64,000 nt of DNA. It comes from Escherichia coli. GTDB taxonomy: Bacteria > Pseudomonadota > Gammaproteobacteria > Enterobacterales > Enterobacteriaceae. Shown in pieces: positions 50,109-60,405 of the stretch (positions are counted from its first letter, which is position 1; the number at the start of each line of letters is the position of its first letter). Location of the stretch: NCBI RefSeq assembly GCF_050920415.1, contig NZ_CP169309.1; one strand, given 5' to 3'. The notes under the pieces were generated by a model that was not told the DNA's origin, did no database searches, and worked only from the letters and a program-made list of their open reading frames with translations. A program made the position numbers and the translations under genes.

Positions 50109-52553
50109 TTACACCTTTTCAACCTGAACCAGGTTTGTATGTGACGGATTCCCCTTAGCGAGAGGAGACGGACGTTGAGTGGTCAGTACGTTAATACAAC
50201 CGCCCTTATCGACACGTTTTGCATCCGGGTCATACCAGGCACCTTCACCCAGTGCGACCACACCCGGCATCATTCGTGGCGTCACTTTTGCCTCAATGTG
50301 AACCTCACCACGGTCGTTAAAGATCCTGACCTTATCGCCGTTGTTGATACCGCGTTTTTGTGCATCAAGCGGGTTGATCCACATTTCCTGACGGCAAGCT
50401 GCTTTCAGCACATCAACGTTGCCGTAAGTTGAGTGAACGCGAGATTTGTAGTGGAAGCCAGTAAGCTGCAGCGGATATTGTTTGTTCAGCGGATCCTGAT
50501 AACTTTCAAAGCCCGGCGTGTAGATCGGCAGTGGATCGATCACGTCGCCTTCTGGCAATTCCCAGGTCGCGGCAATGTCAGCAAGCGCCTGCGAATAAAT
50601 CTCAATTTTACCCGATGGCGTGGTCAGTGGATTTGCCTGCGGATCTTCACGGAAGGCTTTATAAGCAACGTGATGCCCTTGTGGGTCGCGCTTTTTAAAG
50701 ATCCCCTGCTTGCGGAACTCTTCAAACGTTGGCAGTTCAGGAATCGCTTCCCGCGACTGGGCATACAGATGCCGCATCCACTCTTCCTGGGTACGGCCTT
50801 CGGTGAACTGCTGCTCGACGCCAAGACGTTTTGCCAGTTCACTGGTCATCTCATAGATGGTCTTACATTCAAAGCGCGGTTTAATCACCTGGTCGTTGAA
50901 AATCACATAAGACATATTCCCGCAGGATGCATCCAGCGCAAAGTCCATCTGTTCGGAAGCAGTGCAGTCAGGCAGCAGGATGTCAGCATATTTCGCCGAT
51001 GAGGTCATGTGGCAGTCGATAACCACAATCAGCTCGCACTTCTTATCATCCTGGAGGATTTCATGAGTACGGTTGATTTCAGAATGCTGGTTAATCAGGC
51101 AGTTACCGGCATAGTTCCAGATCATTTTGATCGGCACATCAAGCTTATCTTTCCCGCGCACCCCATCACGCAGCGCTGTCATTTCCGGGCCACGTTCAAT
51201 GGCATCGGTCCACATAAACATCGAAATGCTGGTCTGGATCGGGTTTTCGAGGGTCGGCATACGGACAAAAGGTAAGCTGTATGAACCTTCACGCGCGCCG
51301 CTGTTGCCCCCGTTAATACCAACGTTACCGGTCAGAATCGCCAGCATTGAGATAGCACGGGTTGCGATTTCACCGTTAGCGTGACGCTGCGGCCCCCATC
51401 CCTGACTGATAAACGCGGGTTTAGTACTGCCGATCTCACGTGCCAGTTTGACGATTTTGTCTGCCGGAACACCGGTAATTTGCGAGGCCCATTCCGGTGT
51501 TTTGGCCACGCCATCTGGCCCTTCCCCCAGAATATAAGCTTTATAGTGACCATTTTTCGGTGCACTGGCTGGCAGGGTTTTCTCGTCGTAGCCAACGCAA
51601 TATTTATCGAGGAATTCCTGATCAACCAGATTTTCGCTGATCATGACGTACGCCAGACCATTAACCAGTGCGGCATCTGTTCCCGGACGAATGGGGATCC
51701 ACTCATCTTCACGCCCTGCACCGGTGTCGGTATAGCGCGGATCGATAATGATCATACGAGCGTTGGATTTCTGACGAGCCTGCTCAAGGTAATAAGTCAC
51801 CCCACCACCGCTCATTCGCGTTTCGCCAGGGTTATTACCAAACAGTACCACCAGCTTACTGTTTTCAATATCTGACGGGCTATTACCATCCGCCCAGCCG
51901 CCGTAGGTATAGTTCAAACCTTCCGCAATTTGCGCGGAAGAGTAGTCACCGTAATGGTTCAGATAACCGCCGCAGCAGTTCATCAGGCGAGCGACCAGGG
52001 TATTTCCCGGCGGCCAGGAGCGGGTCATGGTGCCGCCCAGCGTACCGGTACCATAGTTCAGATAGATAGACTCGTTGCCGTACTCTTTGATCAGACGCTG
52101 CATGTTCGTGGCGATAATGTCGTAGGCTTCTTCCCAGCTAATGCGCTCGAATTTGCCTTCGCCGCGCGCCCCAACTCGTTTCATCGGATATTTCAGGCGG
52201 TCAGGGTTATAAACGCGGCGACGCATGGAACGCCCACGCAGGCAGGCGCGTACCTGGTGCAGCCCGTCGTAATTATCATCGCCGGTATTGTCTGTTTCGA
52301 CATATTTGATTTCACCGTCCACTACGTGCATACGTAGCGGGCAGCGGCTACCACAGTTAACTGTACAGGCGCTCCAGATAACCTTTTCGTCTGACTTTGC
52401 CGGAAGGGCACTATCAACAGCGTGCGCAATCCGACTAAAAGGTAAGGTTAATGCGCTGCTGGCCATTGCCAGGCCGCCGATCGCTGTCGTTTTTACCAAA
52501 CCACGGCGACTCACCTCAGCAGCCAATACCGCATCAGGGATTTTCGTTTTCAT
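50109..52553 (-). CDS. dmsA: DMSO reductase catalytic subunit (molybdopterin guanine dinucleotide enzyme), Tat-exported
   Basis: 814-aa ORF; twin-arginine signal (SRRGLVKTTAIGGLAMASSALTLPFSRIAHA); N-terminal Cys cluster CTVNCGSRCPLR. Confidence 0.95.
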   Translation of the reverse strand: MKTKIPDAVLAAEVSRRGLVKTTAIGGLAMASSALTLPFSRIAHAVDSALPAKSDEKVIWSACTVNCGSRCPLRMHVVDGEIKYVETDNTGDDNYDGLHQVRACLRGRSMRRRVYNPDRLKYPMKRVGARGEGKFERISWEEAYDIIATNMQRLIKEYGNESIYLNYGTGTLGGTMTRSWPPGNTLVARLMNCCGGYLNHYGDYSSAQIAEGLNYTYGGWADGNSPSDIENSKLVVLFGNNPGETRMSGGGVTYYLEQARQKSNARMIIIDPRYTDTGAGREDEWIPIRPGTDAALVNGLAYVMISENLVDQEFLDKYCVGYDEKTLPASAPKNGHYKAYILGEGPDGVAKTPEWASQITGVPADKIVKLAREIGSTKPAFISQGWGPQRHANGEIATRAISMLAILTGNVGINGGNSGAREGSYSLPFVRMPTLENPIQTSISMFMWTDAIERGPEMTALRDGVRGKDKLDVPIKMIWNYAGNCLINQHSEINRTHEILQDDKKCELIVVIDCHMTSSAKYADILLPDCTASEQMDFALDASCGNMSYVIFNDQVIKPRFECKTIYEMTSELAKRLGVEQQFTEGRTQEEWMRHLYAQSREAIPELPTFEEFRKQGIFKKRDPQGHHVAYKAFREDPQANPLTTPSGKIEIYSQALADIAATWELPEGDVIDPLPIYTPGFESYQDPLNKQYPLQLTGFHYKSRVHSTYGNVDVLKAACRQEMWINPLDAQKRGINNGDKVRIFNDRGEVHIEAKVTPRMMPGVVALGEGAWYDPDAKRVDKGGCINVLTTQRPSPLAKGNPSHTNLVQVEKV

Positions 52554-52723
52554 AATGGCTCACTCAAGCTTGCTCACGATTGATTCCAGTAACAAACCGT
52601 ATTGTGTAATTATTTCTATAGCAGGTCGCTATATAGGTTTGTATACATCGAATGATTTGAAAATCAAAGAGATAGGCAGATTTTCACTCGAAAGTAGTAT
52701 TACGTGTAAGTGAGGAGTAATTA

Positions 52724-52737
52724 TTGTTCGGTATCAA
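52724..52737 (-). promoter_or_regulatory. Candidate FNR box of the dmsABC promoter (minus-strand TTGATaccgAACAA)
   Basis: Seen directly: TTGTTcggtATCAA on the plus strand, a near-consensus FNR site (TTGAT-N4-ATCAA) in the serS-dmsA intergenic region; the dms operon is known to be FNR-dependent. The distance to the dmsA ATG (~170 bp) implies a long leader. Confidence 0.45.
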
Positions 52738-52745
52738 AGGGAGAC

Positions 52746-52771
52746 AAAAAAAGCGCCCGAAGGCGCTTTTT
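52746..52771 (-). terminator. Candidate rho-independent terminator downstream of serS (symmetric, possibly bidirectional)
   Basis: Seen directly: AAAAAAAGCGCCCGAAGGCGCTTTTTAG, a GC stem flanked by A- and T-runs, just after the serS stop. Confidence 0.7.
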
Positions 52772-52791
52772 AGATTCAGAAAAATTGGGTA

Positions 52792-54105
<1,314 letters not shown>

Positions 54106-54174
54106 TTAAATGGGAGATGTGGCCACAGCCTGCGACCACAGGGATACAGTAACAACATTACCGCAACGATAACA

Positions 54175-55518
54175 TTAACGGTAGCGTTTTATGGGGCTAT
54201 TTTGATCCTGTTCAGCCAGCCAGGCGAGCTTTTCGCCAATCTTGCCTTCAAGGCCCCTGTTTGTCGGGAAATAATAGCGTGTTTGTGCTATTTCCGGCGG
54301 GAAGTAAACCTCACCGGCAGCATAAGCGTTTGCTTCATCATGAGCATAACGATATTCCTGACTGTAGCCCATTTCCTTCATTAATTTTGTCGGCGCATTA
54401 CGCAAATGAACCGGCACGTCATAATCCGGACGTTCGCGAGCATCGGCCAGCGCGGCTTTAAATGCGGTATAGACAGCGTTACTTTTTGGCGCGCAGGCCA
54501 GGTAAACAATCGCCTGAGCAATGGCACGTTCACCTTCAGCCGGACCAACTCGAGTAAAGCAATCCCAGGCCGCAATAGCCACCTGCATCGCCCGTGGGTC
54601 AGCATTACCCACATCTTCAGACGCAATCGCCAGGCAGCGACGCGCGACATATAACGGATCTCCACCGGCGGTAATAATTCGCGCATACCAGTACAGCGCC
54701 GCATCGGGTGCGCTCCCACGCACCGATTTATGCAGTGCAGAGATCAGATCGTAAAAGCGATCGCCTTTGTTATCAAAGCGGGCGCTACGCTCACCGGCGA
54801 TTTCGGTCAGTAATTCAGGCTTCAGGACCCGCTTACCGCTATCATCGACTTCGGCCATATCCGCCATCATTTCCAGCGTATTTAACGCCCGGCGCGCGTC
54901 GCCATTCACCAGTTCAGCAATGGCGCGTCGTGTTTCATCTGGCAGAACAATATCCTGACCACCATAGCCACGGGTTTTGTCTTCCATCGCCTGAGTCAGT
55001 ACTTGCTCAATATCCTCTGTACTGAGGGATTTCAGCAGATAGACACGGGCACGGGAAAGCAGCGCCGAATTAAGCTCAAACGACGGGTTTTCAGTCGTCG
55101 CACCAATAAAAGTGATGGTGCCGTCTTCAATATGTGGCAGAAATGCATCCTGCTGGCTTTTGTTGAAACGGTGAACTTCGTCAACAAAAAGAATAGTGCG
55201 GCGACCAGCATTGCGGTTTTGCCGAGCGCGCTCGATCGCCTCGCGAATCTCTTTCACGCCAGAGGTGACGGCAGAAATACGTTCCACATCAGCGTTCGCA
55301 TAACGGGCTATAACTTCAGCGAGGGTTGTTTTGCCGGTACCCGGTGGCCCCCAGAGGATCATAGAATGCAAATGCCCAGCTTCGATAGCGCGCGGCAATG
55401 GCTTCCCGGCAGCCAGCAAATGTTGCTGGCCGATATACTGTGCTAAATTTTCTGGCCGCATACGCGCGGCCAGAGGTTGAAAAGTATTATCCGAAAAATC
55501 GAGCGACAGATTGCTCAC
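54175..55518 (-). CDS. rarA: Replication-associated recombination protein A (AAA+ ATPase, MgsA/RarA)
   Basis: 447-aa ORF; Walker [10 protein letters not shown] and Walker [10 protein letters not shown] visible. Confidence 0.95.
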
Positions 55519-55528
55519 TCAGGTGCCT

Positions 55529-56140
55529 CTACTTACGTTGATCATCTACCGTGACGCCTTGCGGCGGGGTGAAGGTAAATTTCGCTGCATCCACAGCCCC
55601 ATTTTGCTGGGATTTCAGCTGATAACTGCTGCGCTGATCGTCCTGCTCCACCGCGCTAAACTGATGGATTGTGCCATCACGCCCTACGTTAATGGTGAAC
55701 TGCTTCAAATTGCCATTGCTGGCTTTCGGCGTCAGGACAAAGTCATCGCCATTCTGTTTGATATTGTACTGCTGCCAGTCGCTGGACTGGTTGCGGGCAA
55801 TCAGCATAAACGGCGTATTACCGGTGGCATCTTTCAGCCAGGTTGCCGTAGCTTGCTCAACGAACGGGTTATAGAACCACAGTGTTTTACCGTCAGAAAC
55901 CAGAATGCTTTCATCAGGTTGAGTCATATGCCAGTTGAATAAGTTTGGACGTTTCACCCACAGATCGCCCTGACCTTCCTGCACCGCAGCGCCGCTACCG
56001 TCAGTCACTTTTTGTGTGAAGCTGGCGTGGAAGCTGCTGACTTTATCCAGACGGCTTTTCAGATCGCTTGCGGCATCAGCCCAAACACTGGACGCCACTA
56101 AACTTGAGAGTAATGCACAGGTGATGGCAATTTTTTTCAT
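55529..56140 (-). CDS. lolA: Outer-membrane lipoprotein carrier protein LolA
   Basis: ORF track 55529..56143 (MMKK...); second Met chosen, giving 203 aa with signal peptide [21 protein letters not shown]. Confidence 0.93.
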
Positions 56141-56252
56141 CATTGTTCCTCAAATTACGTCACTCCCGATCGGGAGTTCCCTCTACTCTCTATTCCAGGC
56201 TAATAATCAGCTTGAGGAAAGAAGAAAATACTGAATTTTCAGTTGATAGAGT

Positions 56253-56298: not shown

Positions 56299-59200
56299 TT
56301 AGTCAAACGGCGGTGGGGCCAGCACTTCACGATTACCGTTGTGCCCCTGTTCGCTGACAATCCCTTGCGCTTCCATCTGTTCGATAATACGCGCTGCACG
56401 GTTATAACCAATGCGGAACTGACGCTGTACGCCTGAAATTGACGCTTTGCGTTTTTCAGTGACAAACTGCACTGCCTGATCGAACAACGGATCCAATTCT
56501 TCAGCGCCATCGAAACCACCCGCACCACCTTCGCTTTCGCTGTCGGAGGTGATGCCGTCAACATACTGTGGGCGACCACGCGCTTTCCAGTCCTGCACCA
56601 CGGCATGAACTTCCTGATCGCGAACAAAAGCACCGTGGACACGTACTGGCAGCGTGGAGTTCGGCCCAGAGTAGAGCATATCCCCCATACCCAGCAGGGA
56701 TTCCGCGCCAGCCTGATCAAGAATGGTACGTGAGTCAATCTTACTGGATACGGTAAAGGCGATACGGGTCGGAATATTCGCTTTAATCAGACCAGTAATA
56801 ACATCAACCGATGGACGCTGAGTTGCCAGTACGAGGTGGATACCTGCAGCACGGGCTTTTTGCGCCAGACGTGCTATCAGCTCTTCCACTTTTTTACCTA
56901 CCGTCATCATCAGGTCGGCAAATTCGTCCACCAACACCACAATGTACGGTTCTTTTTTCAGCACCGGATGCTGGGCATCCATACTGTCACCCGGCTTCCA
57001 GTACGGGTCTGGAATCGGACGCATCATGCGATCGGCTTCAGCAATTTTTTCGTTATAACCCGCCAGATTACGCACACCCAGCGCAGACATCAGTTTGTAA
57101 CGACGCTCCATCTCGTTAACACACCAGCGCAGCGCGTTGGCGGCATCTTTCATATCGGTAACAACTTCCGTTAACAGGTGCGGAATGCCTTCATAAACCG
57201 AAAGCTCCAGCATTTTCGGGTCGATCATGATGAAACGCACATCTTCTGGCTGTGCTTTATAAAGCATGCTCAGGATCATCGCGTTCACACCGACAGATTT
57301 ACCGGAACCGGTAGTCCCCGCAACCAACAAGTGCGGCATCTTCGCCAGATCGGCAACCACCGGCTCACCGGCGATATCTTTACCCAGCACCACAGTTAAT
57401 GGTGACGGATTATCGCGGAACTTCGCATTATCAAGCACTTCGCGCAGATAAACGGTTTGTCGTTTTTTATTCGGTAACTCCAGACCTACATAAGGTTTGC
57501 CAGGAATAACTTCAACGACACGCACCGCCACCGTCGAAAGTGAACGGGCAAGGTCACGAGACAAGTTAGAAATGCGCGCCGCTTTTACGCCCGGTGCCAG
57601 ATTCAATTCAAAGCGAGTGATAACCGGTCCCGGAGAGTAATTGACGACATCGGCTTTAATACGGAAATCAGCCAGACGCGCTTCCACCAGGCGCGCCATT
57701 TGTTCAAGCGCAAAGGTATCTACCGGTTCCACTTCGCTCGGTGGCGGTGTCAGCAAATCCAGAGAAGGCAGCGGCGTCGTCGGTTTATGCAACGGACGGC
57801 TGTCGCCATTGCGCATCAACAGTGGATGAAGCAGGGTATCCTGCGGCTGCGGCGCAACCGGTTGTTGTGGCTGCTGATACTGCGGCTGCGGCGCAACTGG
57901 CTGTTGCGGCTGCTGATATTGCTGCTGTGGTGCAACCGGCTGTTGTGGCTGCTGATACTGCGGCTGTGGTGCAACCGGCTGTTGCGGCTGCTGATATTGC
58001 GGCTGCTGTGCAACCGGTTGTTGCGGCTGCTGGTATTGCTGCTGCGGCGCTATCGGTTGTTGCGGCTGCTGATACTGCGGCTGCGGCACTACCGGTTGTT
58101 GCGGCTGCTGTACAGGTTCAACAATTGGCGTAAACAGCGGTTCGTGTGGCCCATCATCCAGCAAAGCTTTCATTGGCGAAAATTCGAAATCATCCAGCGA
58201 GAACGGATTCGCCCCAGCTGGTTGTTCGCCCGAATAACGTTGCTGTTGAGTTTGAGCAAACTGACGAGCCAGTTCTGCCTCTGCTACAGCATCTGTATCT
58301 TCTGCGTTGACTGGCACATCATGTTGATACTGTTCGCCATAGCGTTGCTGCTGCGTCTGGGCGAACTGACGCGCCAGTTCATCCTGCTGCATCGCATCGA
58401 TTTCATCATCGTTATACTGATCGCCGGAATCGTACTGATTGCGCTGGGCTTCACGGGCTTTTTCTTCTGCTGCACGCTGTGAGGGCAGCTTAATGCCATA
58501 TGACGCCAGTTCACGACGAGTTGGCACGCGGATACGTTTCGGTCGTGGCAACTGCGGGCCAATCCCCTCTTTAACCTGCGGACGCGGTCCACCGCTATTT
58601 GCCAGACTGAAGACTGGTGCGGCAACGGTTGCGGCAGCCCCCGTCGCCAATGTCGCTTTTTTCACGCCAGATGCCAGAGGGGAAACAGCGGCAGCGGCTT
58701 CCACTGGAGGTACTGCTGCAACAGAAGGTGCTTTCAGCGAAGATTTGATCGGTTCTGGTTCTTTAACCGGTTCAGGAATCGGTTGATACCAGGCCGCAAG
58801 TTGTTCACGTTCACGGGCACGCTTCTCTTCCACTTCTTCAAAATAGTAAAGCGGCGGACGCGCGGGTTTTGTCTCTTCTACAATGGGTTCAGGCTCCACA
58901 ACAGGCTGCTGTTCAACGGGTTGCGGCTGTTGGTACAACGGCTCCTGAGCGGCTGGCTGCTGATAAGTTTGCTCAGTCTGGTATGTAGACTGTGGAGCAA
59001 AAGTGGATTGCTGCTCTTCGGCTTGCCAGGCGTTACCTGCCATCGATTGTTCTGGCGCAGGGGCGTAATACGGCTGTTGCGCAGACTGTTCCGCCGCAGT
59101 TGTGTAATACGGCTGCTGAACAGGTTGTTCCGGCGCAGGAGCGTAGTAAGGTTGTTGCACAGGCTGTTCAGCTGCAGGCGCATAATACGGCTGCTGTGGC

Positions 59201-60405
59201 TGTACAGGTTGTTGCAGCGGCTCATTATATTGCTCTGCAGGCTGCGCATATTGTGACTGCTGTGGGTAACCTTCCGGTGCAGGTGCAATAACCGGTTCTC
59301 CCGTTTGCGGCCCCGGTACAGGCTGCCAGGCTACTGTAGGTTGCGTAGGTGGAACATCAACAGAGGCAACTGGCGGCGTCTGAGTCACAGGTTCAACCGG
59401 TGCAGCCCAGCTTTGTGTCGCCGTGGTAGCAGCAGCTGCTACAGCAACAGGTTCGGTAATTGGCGCACCGTTTAATAATGGATCGTATTCGTCATATTCT
59501 GGCTGCGTTGCACGATTGCCCGAAAAGAGGACGTCGTCAGGGTCGGCAGCCACACCGCGTGCAGTGTAGGTAATCTCTTCTTCATCATCCATCCGCTTAC
59601 CGGAGAACAACGCAGCATCTGTTTGCCGCCCCATCGGATTAATAAATTTTTCCGCCAACCGTTTACGACGCGCTAACGCGCCGCGAAGAATACGGGCACG
59701 GCGCGATTCATGCTGTTTGCCGTGATTTTCATCTTCATATTCTTCGTCGTCTTCATACTCATCTTCATCGACCCAGGTATCATCGCGACGGGTACGATTA
59801 CTGGCGAAGGTGAGAATGTTTAAAATCCAGCCGCCAAGTTTTTCAGCAATGGTCACCCATGACCAACCGGTAAACAGTGTCAGGCCCGCCGCCCAAACGC
59901 AGAGCAGCGCAATAGTTCCCCCGCTACTGTGTAGCAGTGGTTGTAGCGTAGTGCTTAGTAAGCTGCCGATGACGCCACCGGAGGCAAAATACCAGATATC
60001 GTCAGCGTTGATTGCCGCCAGACCACAAGAGGTAAGGATGAGCGCCAAAACGCCAATGATGCGTAGCGAAACGGCAAAATAATCAATGTATTCGTCACTG
60101 GACTGATGACGCCAGGCAAACCAACAGCCGCCGACGATAATGACGGGAATGGTGTAAGCCATCACGCCAAAAATAAAGAACAGCGTATCTGCCAGCCACG
60201 CACCGGGCATCCCACCTAAATTATGGATAGGTTCATGCCAGGCCGTTTGCGACCAGCTGGGGTCCGAAGGGTTAAAGCTTAGTAAGGCAGCCATCAACCA
60301 GACGGCAAACAGGACAATAAGGATCAGCAACGCCTCCAGAAGGCGGCGGCCGCTACTTAACTTTGTCAATGTGACTTCTTTGTCTTCAGTGTATTCCTGG
60401 CTCAA
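56299..60405 (-). CDS. ftsK: DNA translocase FtsK
   Basis: 1368-aa ORF; N-terminal 4-TM domain ([31 protein letters not shown]), long Pro/Gln-rich linker with tandem repeats, C-terminal motor with Walker A GTTGSGKS. Confidence 0.96.
57841..58115 (-). repeat. In-frame tandem repeat array (~33-bp unit, about 8 copies) encoding the FtsK linker [11 protein letters not shown] repeats
   Basis: Seen directly: repeated CTGCGGCTGCGGCGCAACCGGTTGTTGTGGCTGCTGATA-like units on the plus strand; translation shows [13 protein letters not shown] repeated about 8 times. Confidence 0.9.
59050..59230 (-). repeat. Second in-frame tandem repeat array (~39-bp unit, about 4 copies) encoding [13 protein letters not shown] repeats of the FtsK linker
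   Basis: Seen directly: repeated ...GGCGCAGGAGCGTAATACGGCTGCTGAACAGGTTGTTC... units; translation shows QQPYYAPA(A/P)EQ repeated four times. Confidence 0.85.

Follow-up and report, generated by a model that had tools for sequence, protein, structure and literature searches.

The ftsK gene of this Escherichia coli strain encodes a protein of 1368 aa, 39 residues (117 bp) longer than the 1329 aa of K-12 FtsK, and alignment of the two proteins places every extra residue inside two arrays of 39-bp repeats in the Pro/Gln-rich linker. The excess over K-12 is one of repeat copy number, as an earlier note on this DNA had proposed. Length polymorphism of the ftsK linker is already known, and the length found in this strain is ordinary, 1368 aa being one of the two commonest. 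We consider it very probable that the polymorphism arose as units were slowly gained and lost in frame, with alleles stable within clones, in a disordered Pro/Gln-rich linker that tolerates changes in length.

The ftsK gene and the source of its extra length

In the window, which denotes the whole 64-kb stretch analyzed here, ftsK is a TTG-started ORF at 56299-60405 on the minus strand. The length of 1368 aa given in the earlier note was borne out by the ORF list and by the RefSeq annotation, where the source record NZ_CP169399.1 names the ORF ftsK and the protein WP_000077105.1; the TTG start is common to 17/17 ftsK alleles examined. Four Pfam domains were identified in order and far above the Pfam cut-offs, all on the minus strand: the N-terminal membrane domain FtsK_4TM (59833-60348, aa 20-191; PF13491, E = 5e-42), FtsK_alpha (57469-57771, aa 879-979; PF17854, E = 1e-29), the ATPase or beta domain FtsK_SpoIIIE (56806-57447, aa 987-1200; PF01580, E = 9e-88), and FtsK_gamma (56317-56499, aa 1303-1363; PF09397, E = 3e-28). 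The gene order lrp-ftsK-lolA-rarA-serS is the same in the source record and in K-12. The product is an E. coli-type FtsK DNA translocase with a 4TM anchor, a long linker and an alpha-beta-gamma motor.

Outside the alignment gaps the protein is 99% identical to K-12 FtsK, whose length the earlier note had given correctly as about 1329 aa. K-12 shows a gap of 26 aa in the N-proximal array, corresponding to two 13-aa units (78 bp) more in this strain, and a gap of 13 aa in the C-proximal array, corresponding to one unit (39 bp). In terms of the typing loci described below, four ms06 units together with CVN001 allele 6 give 1368 aa, and two units with allele 5 give the 1329 aa of K-12. The 117 bp had been equated with three copies of a single 39-bp unit, which the alignment corrects to 78 bp in the N array and 39 bp in the C array; the alternative offered at the time, a change in the C array, accounts for one unit, but the other two lie in the N array. 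The alignment revealed neither an equal length or repeat count in K-12 nor extra residues outside the arrays, the two outcomes named beforehand as contradicting a copy-number difference.

Other complete genomes are at most 96.3% identical to this ftsK. Foreign import of the gene was nevertheless ruled out by the divergence of the window as a whole, which matches K-12 at 95-99% identity (about 97%), a range that includes ftsK. The genes neighboring ftsK likewise have no match of at least 99%.

Structure of the repeat arrays

Both in-frame arrays were detected by Tandem Repeats Finder where the earlier note had located them. The N-proximal array (59040-59217, minus strand) consists of four 13-residue units followed by a partial unit, and was reported by the program at 59047-59196 with copy numbers of 3.7 at period 39 and 1.9 at period 78 (score 209). 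The C-proximal array (57838-58110, minus strand) contains six full units, each PQ(P/Q) followed by ten further residues, together with partial end units; here the program reported 57841-58110 with period 39, 6.9 copies, 88% matches and a score of 386. The unit of the C array is 39 bp (13 aa) and had been misread as 33 bp (11 aa). To call the repeats nearly perfect was likewise an overstatement, as pairs of full C units agree at 32-36 of 39 positions (82-92%) and pairs of N units at 28-30 (72-77%). No identical pair of units is found in the arrays of the window, any two units differing by at least 3 bases, and the longest exact internal repeat is 26 bp in the C array and 14 bp in the N array.

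Within the arrays, pS and pN are 0.49 and 0.04 for the C units and 0.70 and 0.11 for the N units, and purifying selection acts on the unit peptide. With divergence at synonymous sites but a conserved peptide, the units must be old copies selected at the peptide level and not the product of a recent expansion.

Two further repeats are present in the protein. A third internal duplication, seen in the translation, comprises two copies of a 14-residue peptide (58234-58380, minus strand) at aa 676-689 and 711-724, spaced by 35 aa (105 bp). Both copies are kept in all Escherichia species examined and have diverged in Phytobacter and Trabulsiella; the pair shows no copy-number variation in the 17-allele alignment, which is free of gaps there. 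An acidic run of 14 residues (59728-59769, minus strand; Tandem Repeats Finder period 6 bp, 7 copies) is the sole indel site outside the arrays in the 17 alleles, where strain 500010 shows a change of 1 aa near residue 223. Long antisense ORFs overlie the arrays, for example at 57700-58482 (plus strand, 260 aa) and 58783-59256 (plus strand, 157 aa). They are taken as by-products of the CAG/CCG repeat composition, which is stop-free.

In other Escherichia species the N array has 2-5 units and the C array about 2-9, and species-specific unit variants such as YQPPQQ and YQPSQQ occur; the N array of E. whittamii has 5 units. Units were more alike within an array than between lineages in 4/5 Escherichia lineages, E. 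whittamii being the exception, a pattern that fits ongoing turnover and homogenization. A degenerate-anchor scan across genera for an 11-residue stretch matched only 7 species, Salmonella not among them.

Correspondence to known typing loci

The C array is the locus typed as ms07 in the Shigella/E. coli MLVA panel and as CVN001, with primers matching at 0-1 mismatch and the same 39-bp unit. The CVN001 primers lie at 58205-58223 and 57740-57759 with one mismatch each and give a 484-bp product, hence allele 6 by the published formula, (484-250)/39 = 6. The ms07 primers match at 58351-58370 and 57745-57764, and the C-array primers from PMC11773471 also match the window. Its position between the primers, its 39-bp period and its variable copy number among strains all agree with CVN001, a 39-bp VNTR in ftsK (PMC11773471, PMC8143711). 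The generic E. coli MLVA scheme that includes CVN001 is credited to Lindstedt et al. 2007 in the accounts given by PMC5217547 and PMC8143711. Alleles 4-8 have been reported, of which 5 and 6 each account for 40% (PMC5217547); this range and the dominance of these two alleles agree with our sample, in which allele 6 was the most frequent (55%, 31/56 genomes). The array does not differ in substance from the published locus; the differences between its units and those in other E. coli are mostly synonymous and come from the divergence of about 3% that separates the window as a whole from K-12. Fragment sizing of CVN001 rounds off the partial-unit alleles of the sample (-24 and -15 bp) and the nearly unit-less allele.

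The N array is MLVA locus ms06, allele 4 in this strain. It has a 39-bp unit and lies inside the published primers, which match at 59287-59306 and 58928-58947 and give a 379-bp amplicon, and its three size classes correspond to alleles 2-4. The Shigella/E. coli MLVA panel with ms06 is reportedly that of Gorge et al. 2008. For ms06, alleles 2, 3 and 4 with amplicons of 301-379 bp have been described, together with the primers (PMC8215070), so that the amplicon here stands at the top of the reported range. The array and the published ms06 locus do not differ in substance; E. whittamii, with 5 units, exceeds the alleles described for E. coli. The view of the linker as a hotspot of length polymorphism suited to strain typing is therefore correct: both arrays vary across complete genomes and both have long served as MLVA markers.

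The ftsK gene of Salmonella likewise holds a 39-bp VNTR used for typing, STTR7/SENTR2 (PMC2430564). It shares the gene, the linker and the period with the E. coli array, but has a higher copy number (9.3) and belongs to another genus; from the literature, it would be the positional ortholog of the E. coli C array. CVN004/SENTR1 is likewise an in-frame VNTR in the gene of a cell-envelope protein and belongs to the same MLVA schemes (PMC11773471, PMC2430564), but it lies in tolA, outside this window, with a unit of 15 bp in E. coli and 45 bp in Salmonella.

Copy-number variation among complete genomes

For the frequencies, the 5,426 complete E. coli genomes of RefSeq, a biased collection, were sampled systematically, at about 57-59 genomes per sample. 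The C array and the whole linker were sized with a flanks-only BLAST query, joining the alignment across the array. At ms06, amplicon classes of 341, 302 and 263 bp, spaced by 39 bp, were found in 19 genomes each (n=57), the alleles of 2, 3 or 4 units being about equally shared. The C array showed seven size classes in 56 genomes. Flank-to-flank spans, again in steps of 39 bp, of 695 bp (31 genomes), 656 bp (12), 734 bp (6), 617 bp (2) and 578 bp (1) were accompanied by rare partial-unit deletions of 24 bp (671 bp, 3 genomes) and 15 bp (680 bp, 1 genome). FtsK lengths (n=59) were headed by 1329 aa in 17 genomes (29%) and 1368 aa in 16 (27%), followed by 1355 aa in 11 and 1342 aa in 5, over a range of 1264-1394 aa. 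At the unit level, 17 alleles of 1264-1381 aa carried about 1 to 8 C units, the C array of one urine isolate being down to about one unit, and their non-array part was constant at 1185 aa apart from the single 1-aa indel mentioned above. Within each sample, O157:H7 genomes were all of one size, as were K-12 genomes. The record BL12, H308 has a broken ftsK of 3994 bp that looks like a sequencing error.

Such an error, and the standing of tandem repeats as a classic site of misassembly, could suggest that the extra 117 bp is an artefact, the repeats having been either expanded here or collapsed in other records. This is extremely unlikely: a 4107-bp ftsK occurs in 16/59 independently assembled complete genomes, the ms06 and CVN001 sizes of this strain recur in 19/57 and 31/56 genomes, and the same alleles have been obtained by PCR-based MLVA (PMC5217547, PMC8215070). 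Moreover, the arrays are just 150-270 bp long and are unambiguous to assemble because every pair of units differs by at least 3 bases.

Tandem repeats within coding sequence are also the usual substrate of phase variation, and the arrays could be read as a contingency locus switching between forms of FtsK at high frequency. We give this reading practically no credence. A change in copy number produces no frame shift or expression switch, as the 39-bp unit spans 13 codons, and the ORF is intact in 17/17 alleles; clones carry identical alleles, the unit identity of only 72-92% speaks against high-rate slippage, and the N-terminal domain of ftsK is needed for cell division (PMC3870252).

The lengths of the two arrays covary positively, the variance of the total being 2.07 units squared against 1.26 for the summed parts. 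Compensation in length between the arrays, which would give a negative covariance, was thereby ruled out. Common descent would explain the positive covariance more simply. The covariance would alternatively follow if lineages were selected for long- or short-linker FtsK, so that the copy numbers of the arrays were not independent neutral characters; we regard this as improbable, but such selection, if real, would tune how the linker engages the divisome or how far the motor extends from the closing septum.

The proposal that copy number is adaptive, with lineages tuning total linker length and the polymorphism held by selection on motor reach or divisome contacts and not by tolerated drift, appears slightly less probable still. 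The tie between linker length and motor reach drawn in the earlier note agrees with a review's summary of Bigot 2004 and Dubarry 2010 (PMC5357621), according to which large linker deletions impair FtsK and the linker contacts FtsQ, FtsL, FtsI and FtsZ. The purifying selection on the unit peptide, the persistence of both arrays across Escherichia species and the positive covariance also point this way. Stabilizing selection on total length, however, predicts the compensation that is absent, and clonal ancestry alone would yield the covariance. Against a linker length of about 650 aa the variation is 1-10%, and natural isolates span the whole range given above, including the urine isolate nearly devoid of the C array. 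In Salmonella, a natural ftsK indel of 2 of 9 repeats was swapped between strains, with no egg-white survival phenotype in the one assay used (PMC6137255).

Origin of the length variants and significance

The reading we favor is that a length-tolerant linker gradually gains and loses units. The two arrays are in-frame 39-bp (13-codon) minisatellites in the linker that joins the membrane anchor of FtsK to its DNA-pumping motor, in which units are now and then gained or lost, putatively through replication slippage or RecA-dependent unequal recombination of similar neighbors. The exact internal repeats, at most 26 and 14 bp, count against such a mechanism. Since the unit length is divisible by 3, the reading frame is always kept, and length variants would persist and reach fixation within clones because the linker tolerates the change. 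By analogy with Salmonella, where the sole allele-swap test was made, in one assay, changes in copy number may be nearly neutral.

The finding has little importance beyond bookkeeping. The length of E. coli FtsK is not fixed at the 1329 aa of K-12, 1368 aa being about as common in the sample, and the cause of the difference is now exact at the level of units. In-silico MLVA alleles of the two arrays can be called from assemblies (ms06 = 4, CVN001 = 6 in this strain). For FtsK biology, the natural span of viable linker lengths, corresponding to proteins of 1264-1394 aa, is a useful by-product: since this span occurs in nature and one isolate is nearly without a C array, it argues that the number of PQ repeats can change without loss of viability, although the unit peptide itself is conserved.

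Repeat arrays and the length difference from K-12

The ftsK gene of strain MFDS1022581 is a minus-strand ORF with a TTG start that encodes 1368 aa (56299-60405); in NZ_CP169399.1, to which the window is 100% identical, it is annotated as ftsK (WP_000077105.1) and its neighbours are lrp and lolA. Pfam assigns a complete architecture, with the 4TM anchor at aa 20-191, the alpha domain at aa 879-979, the FtsK/SpoIIIE ATPase at aa 987-1200 and the gamma domain at aa 1303-1363, and these bounds leave an anchor-to-motor linker of ~690 aa. FtsK of K-12 MG1655 has 1329 aa, as given in an earlier note made from the sequence alone. Pairwise alignment of the two proteins (99% identity) contained exactly two gaps, both in K-12, of 26 aa (two units) in the N-proximal array and 13 aa (one unit) in the C-proximal array; the position of a gap within a repeat is arbitrary, the counts per array are not. 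The 117-bp excess is thus 78 + 39 bp, and the earlier note correctly placed it within the repeat arrays, although the three copies of one family that it offered as one option do not account for it.

Tandem Repeats Finder reported a period of 39 bp for both arrays, with 6.9 copies (88% matches, score 386) in the C array (57841-58110) and 3.7 copies in the N array (59047-59196), the latter scoring also at a doubled period of 78 bp with 1.9 copies. Read in frame, the units are 13 codons long and begin with PQ(P/Q) in the C array and PA(A/P) in the N array, each followed by ten further residues; the C-proximal unit of 33 bp and 11 aa suggested earlier was a miscount. The repeats had also been called nearly perfect. 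Full C units have 32-36 of 39 bases in common and N units 28-30 of 39, every unit in either array of the window ftsK differs from the rest, and the longest exact internal repeat is 26 bp in the C array and 14 bp in the N array, at an offset of 78 bp in both. Differences between units are overwhelmingly synonymous (pS = 0.49 and pN = 0.04 for C units; pS = 0.70 and pN = 0.11 for N units), so the units are old copies with a conserved peptide and not the product of recent expansion. Since the units are diverged with their peptide conserved, and hence old, it is also unlikely that the extra length is an assembly artefact. The observation of the earlier note is real, but needs correcting on three points: how long the unit is, how the extra units divide between the arrays (2 + 1), and how imperfect the repeats are.

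Lineage of the strain

At the DNA level, the best identity of the window ftsK to the 5,425 other complete E. coli genomes was 96.3%. An oddity specific to ftsK was ruled out, as the window is 95-99% (~97%) identical to K-12 over its full length, with no local dip at ftsK, and the lolA-rarA-serS-dmsA flank (51500-56200 checked) had a best match of 98.5% and none of ≥99% among the other complete E. coli genomes. Because the FtsK protein is 99% identical to K-12 despite the DNA divergence, this divergence is mostly synonymous. MFDS1022581 is a food isolate from South Korea, and a close relative was absent among the 5,425 genomes, which points to a lineage that is seldom sequenced and has little representation in the complete-genome set.

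Length variation in E. coli

Variation was sampled from 5,426 complete E. coli genomes by taking evenly spaced rows along each ranking. N-array amplicons of 341, 302 and 263 bp, corresponding to four, three and two units, were found in 19 genomes each. C-array spans, measured flank to flank with a query of the flanks only, equalled that of the window (695 bp) in 31 of 56 genomes and were of the K-12 type (656 bp) in 12; the others were 734 bp (+1 unit; six genomes), 671 bp (-24 bp; three), 617 bp (-2 units; two), 680 bp (-15 bp; one) and 578 bp (-3 units; one). The 24-bp and 15-bp classes (24 + 15 = 39) are partial-unit deletions between within-unit sub-motifs, a footprint that slippage at short direct repeats would be expected to leave. 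For the whole protein, 1329 aa (17/59 genomes) and 1368 aa (16/59) were the two commonest lengths, the window thus having one of them, followed by 1355 aa (11/59), 1342 aa (5/59), 1316, 1347 and 1381 aa (2/59 each) and 1360, 1369 and 1394 aa (1/59 each). In each of the three samples all O157:H7 rows shared one size, as did all K-12 rows, so the loci are clone-stable and slow.

In 17 alleles (the window and 16 others retrieved, 1264-1381 aa), aligned as the earlier note had proposed, length differences sit in the arrays, and the non-array sequence is constant at 1185 aa bar one single-residue indel. This lies in an acidic run with a 6-bp period (59728-59769, minus strand; Tandem Repeats Finder), which has one additional residue in strain 500010 (FtsK 1356 aa); a 4110-bp ftsK length class also occurs in the sample.

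The shortest allele belongs to strain 25403, a clinical urine isolate (NZ_CP195555.1, 899-4693; 1264 aa), in which the C array is cut to about one unit, six fewer than in the window; provided that the genome was assembled correctly, the array has been almost deleted in nature here. The remaining sampled genome (1/59), strain BL12 (NZ_CP079780.1, 2219-5873), has a broken ftsK of 3994 bp flank to flank, annotated as split FtsK fragments and hypothetical proteins, probably a frameshift by sequencing error and not a genuine pseudogene. Plasmid-labelled records (e.g. NZ_CP194962.1, 243 kb) hold eight ftsK matches in the N-array, C-array and whole-gene length queries, against 16 places in the search for ftsK identity, and one of the 5,426 genomes lacks a match; the former are likely mislabelled chromosome fragments, the latter an odd or incomplete assembly.

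Other linker features and related species

A third internal repeat (58234-58380, minus strand) consists of a 14-aa motif present twice, 35 aa apart. Its copy number did not vary among the 17 E. coli alleles, and diverged versions of it persist in Phytobacter and Trabulsiella; it thus looks old and possibly functional. Plus-strand antisense ORFs of 260 aa (57700-58482), 130 aa (57741-58133) and 157 aa (58783-59256) span both arrays and are Leu-, Arg- or Ala-rich, as expected for the reverse complement of stop-free CAG/CCG-rich repeats; the composition of the three gave no sign of gene status.

Seven species were retrieved with a degenerate DNA anchor immediately downstream of the C array. Both arrays were present in all Escherichia lineages retrieved (N, 2-5 units; C, ~2-9 units), with lineage-specific variants common to the units of one array, such as YQPPQQ in MOD1-EC7003 and YQPSQQ/YQPPQQ in E1V33. 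Identity between units averaged 0.87-0.89 within an array and 0.77-0.85 between lineages, within exceeding between for most lineages, a likeness that fits continued turnover and homogenisation. Of the species retrieved, Phytobacter and Trabulsiella are PQ-rich at the C-array position, with neither a clean C array nor an N array found.

Correspondence to known typing loci

The arrays are a textbook VNTR pair, already known and exploited. The earlier note rightly expected repeat-number polymorphism useful for strain typing: the sampled genomes vary, and published MLVA primers match both arrays. The "CNV001 (ftsK)" primers (PMC11773471) match 57749-57770 and 58205-58225, and the original CVN001 pair (PMC8143711) sits at 57740-57759 and 58205-58223 and gives a product of 484 bp; by the published formula, (PS-250)/39, the window has allele 6 and K-12 allele 5. 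In a Swedish collection, CVN001 alleles 4, 5, 6, 7 and 8 made up 1, 40, 40, 13 and 5% (PMC5217547), close to our in-silico C-array sample. For ms06 and ms07, whose units are 39 bp long, the primers (PMC8215070) match 59287-59306/58928-58947 (amplicon 379 bp) and 58351-58370/57745-57764, respectively. By its primer positions ms06 is the N array, and its reported alleles 2, 3 and 4 are the same three classes found here; ms07 and CVN001 are one and the same array. Salmonella ftsK carries a 39-bp VNTR, STTR7/SENTR2, with 9.3 copies (PMC2430564), and swapping a natural ftsK indel (2/9 repeats) between two S. Enteritidis strains left egg-white survival, the assayed phenotype, unchanged (PMC6137255).

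Origin and tolerance of length changes

Compensation between the arrays would point to stabilising selection acting on total length. It was rejected, as total length had a variance of 2.07 units squared, above the summed array variances (1.26 units squared); the bootstrap interval of the excess was 0.20-1.43, for a statistic that ignores kinship. Positive N-C covariance is what clonal ancestry predicts. Changes in ftsK length are in frame, confined to the arrays, frequent between lineages and stable within clones, with the unit peptides conserved. Units would be gained and lost through replication slippage or unequal exchange, and the linker may tolerate such changes by virtue of being an unstructured tether (PMC5357621, PMC3870252).
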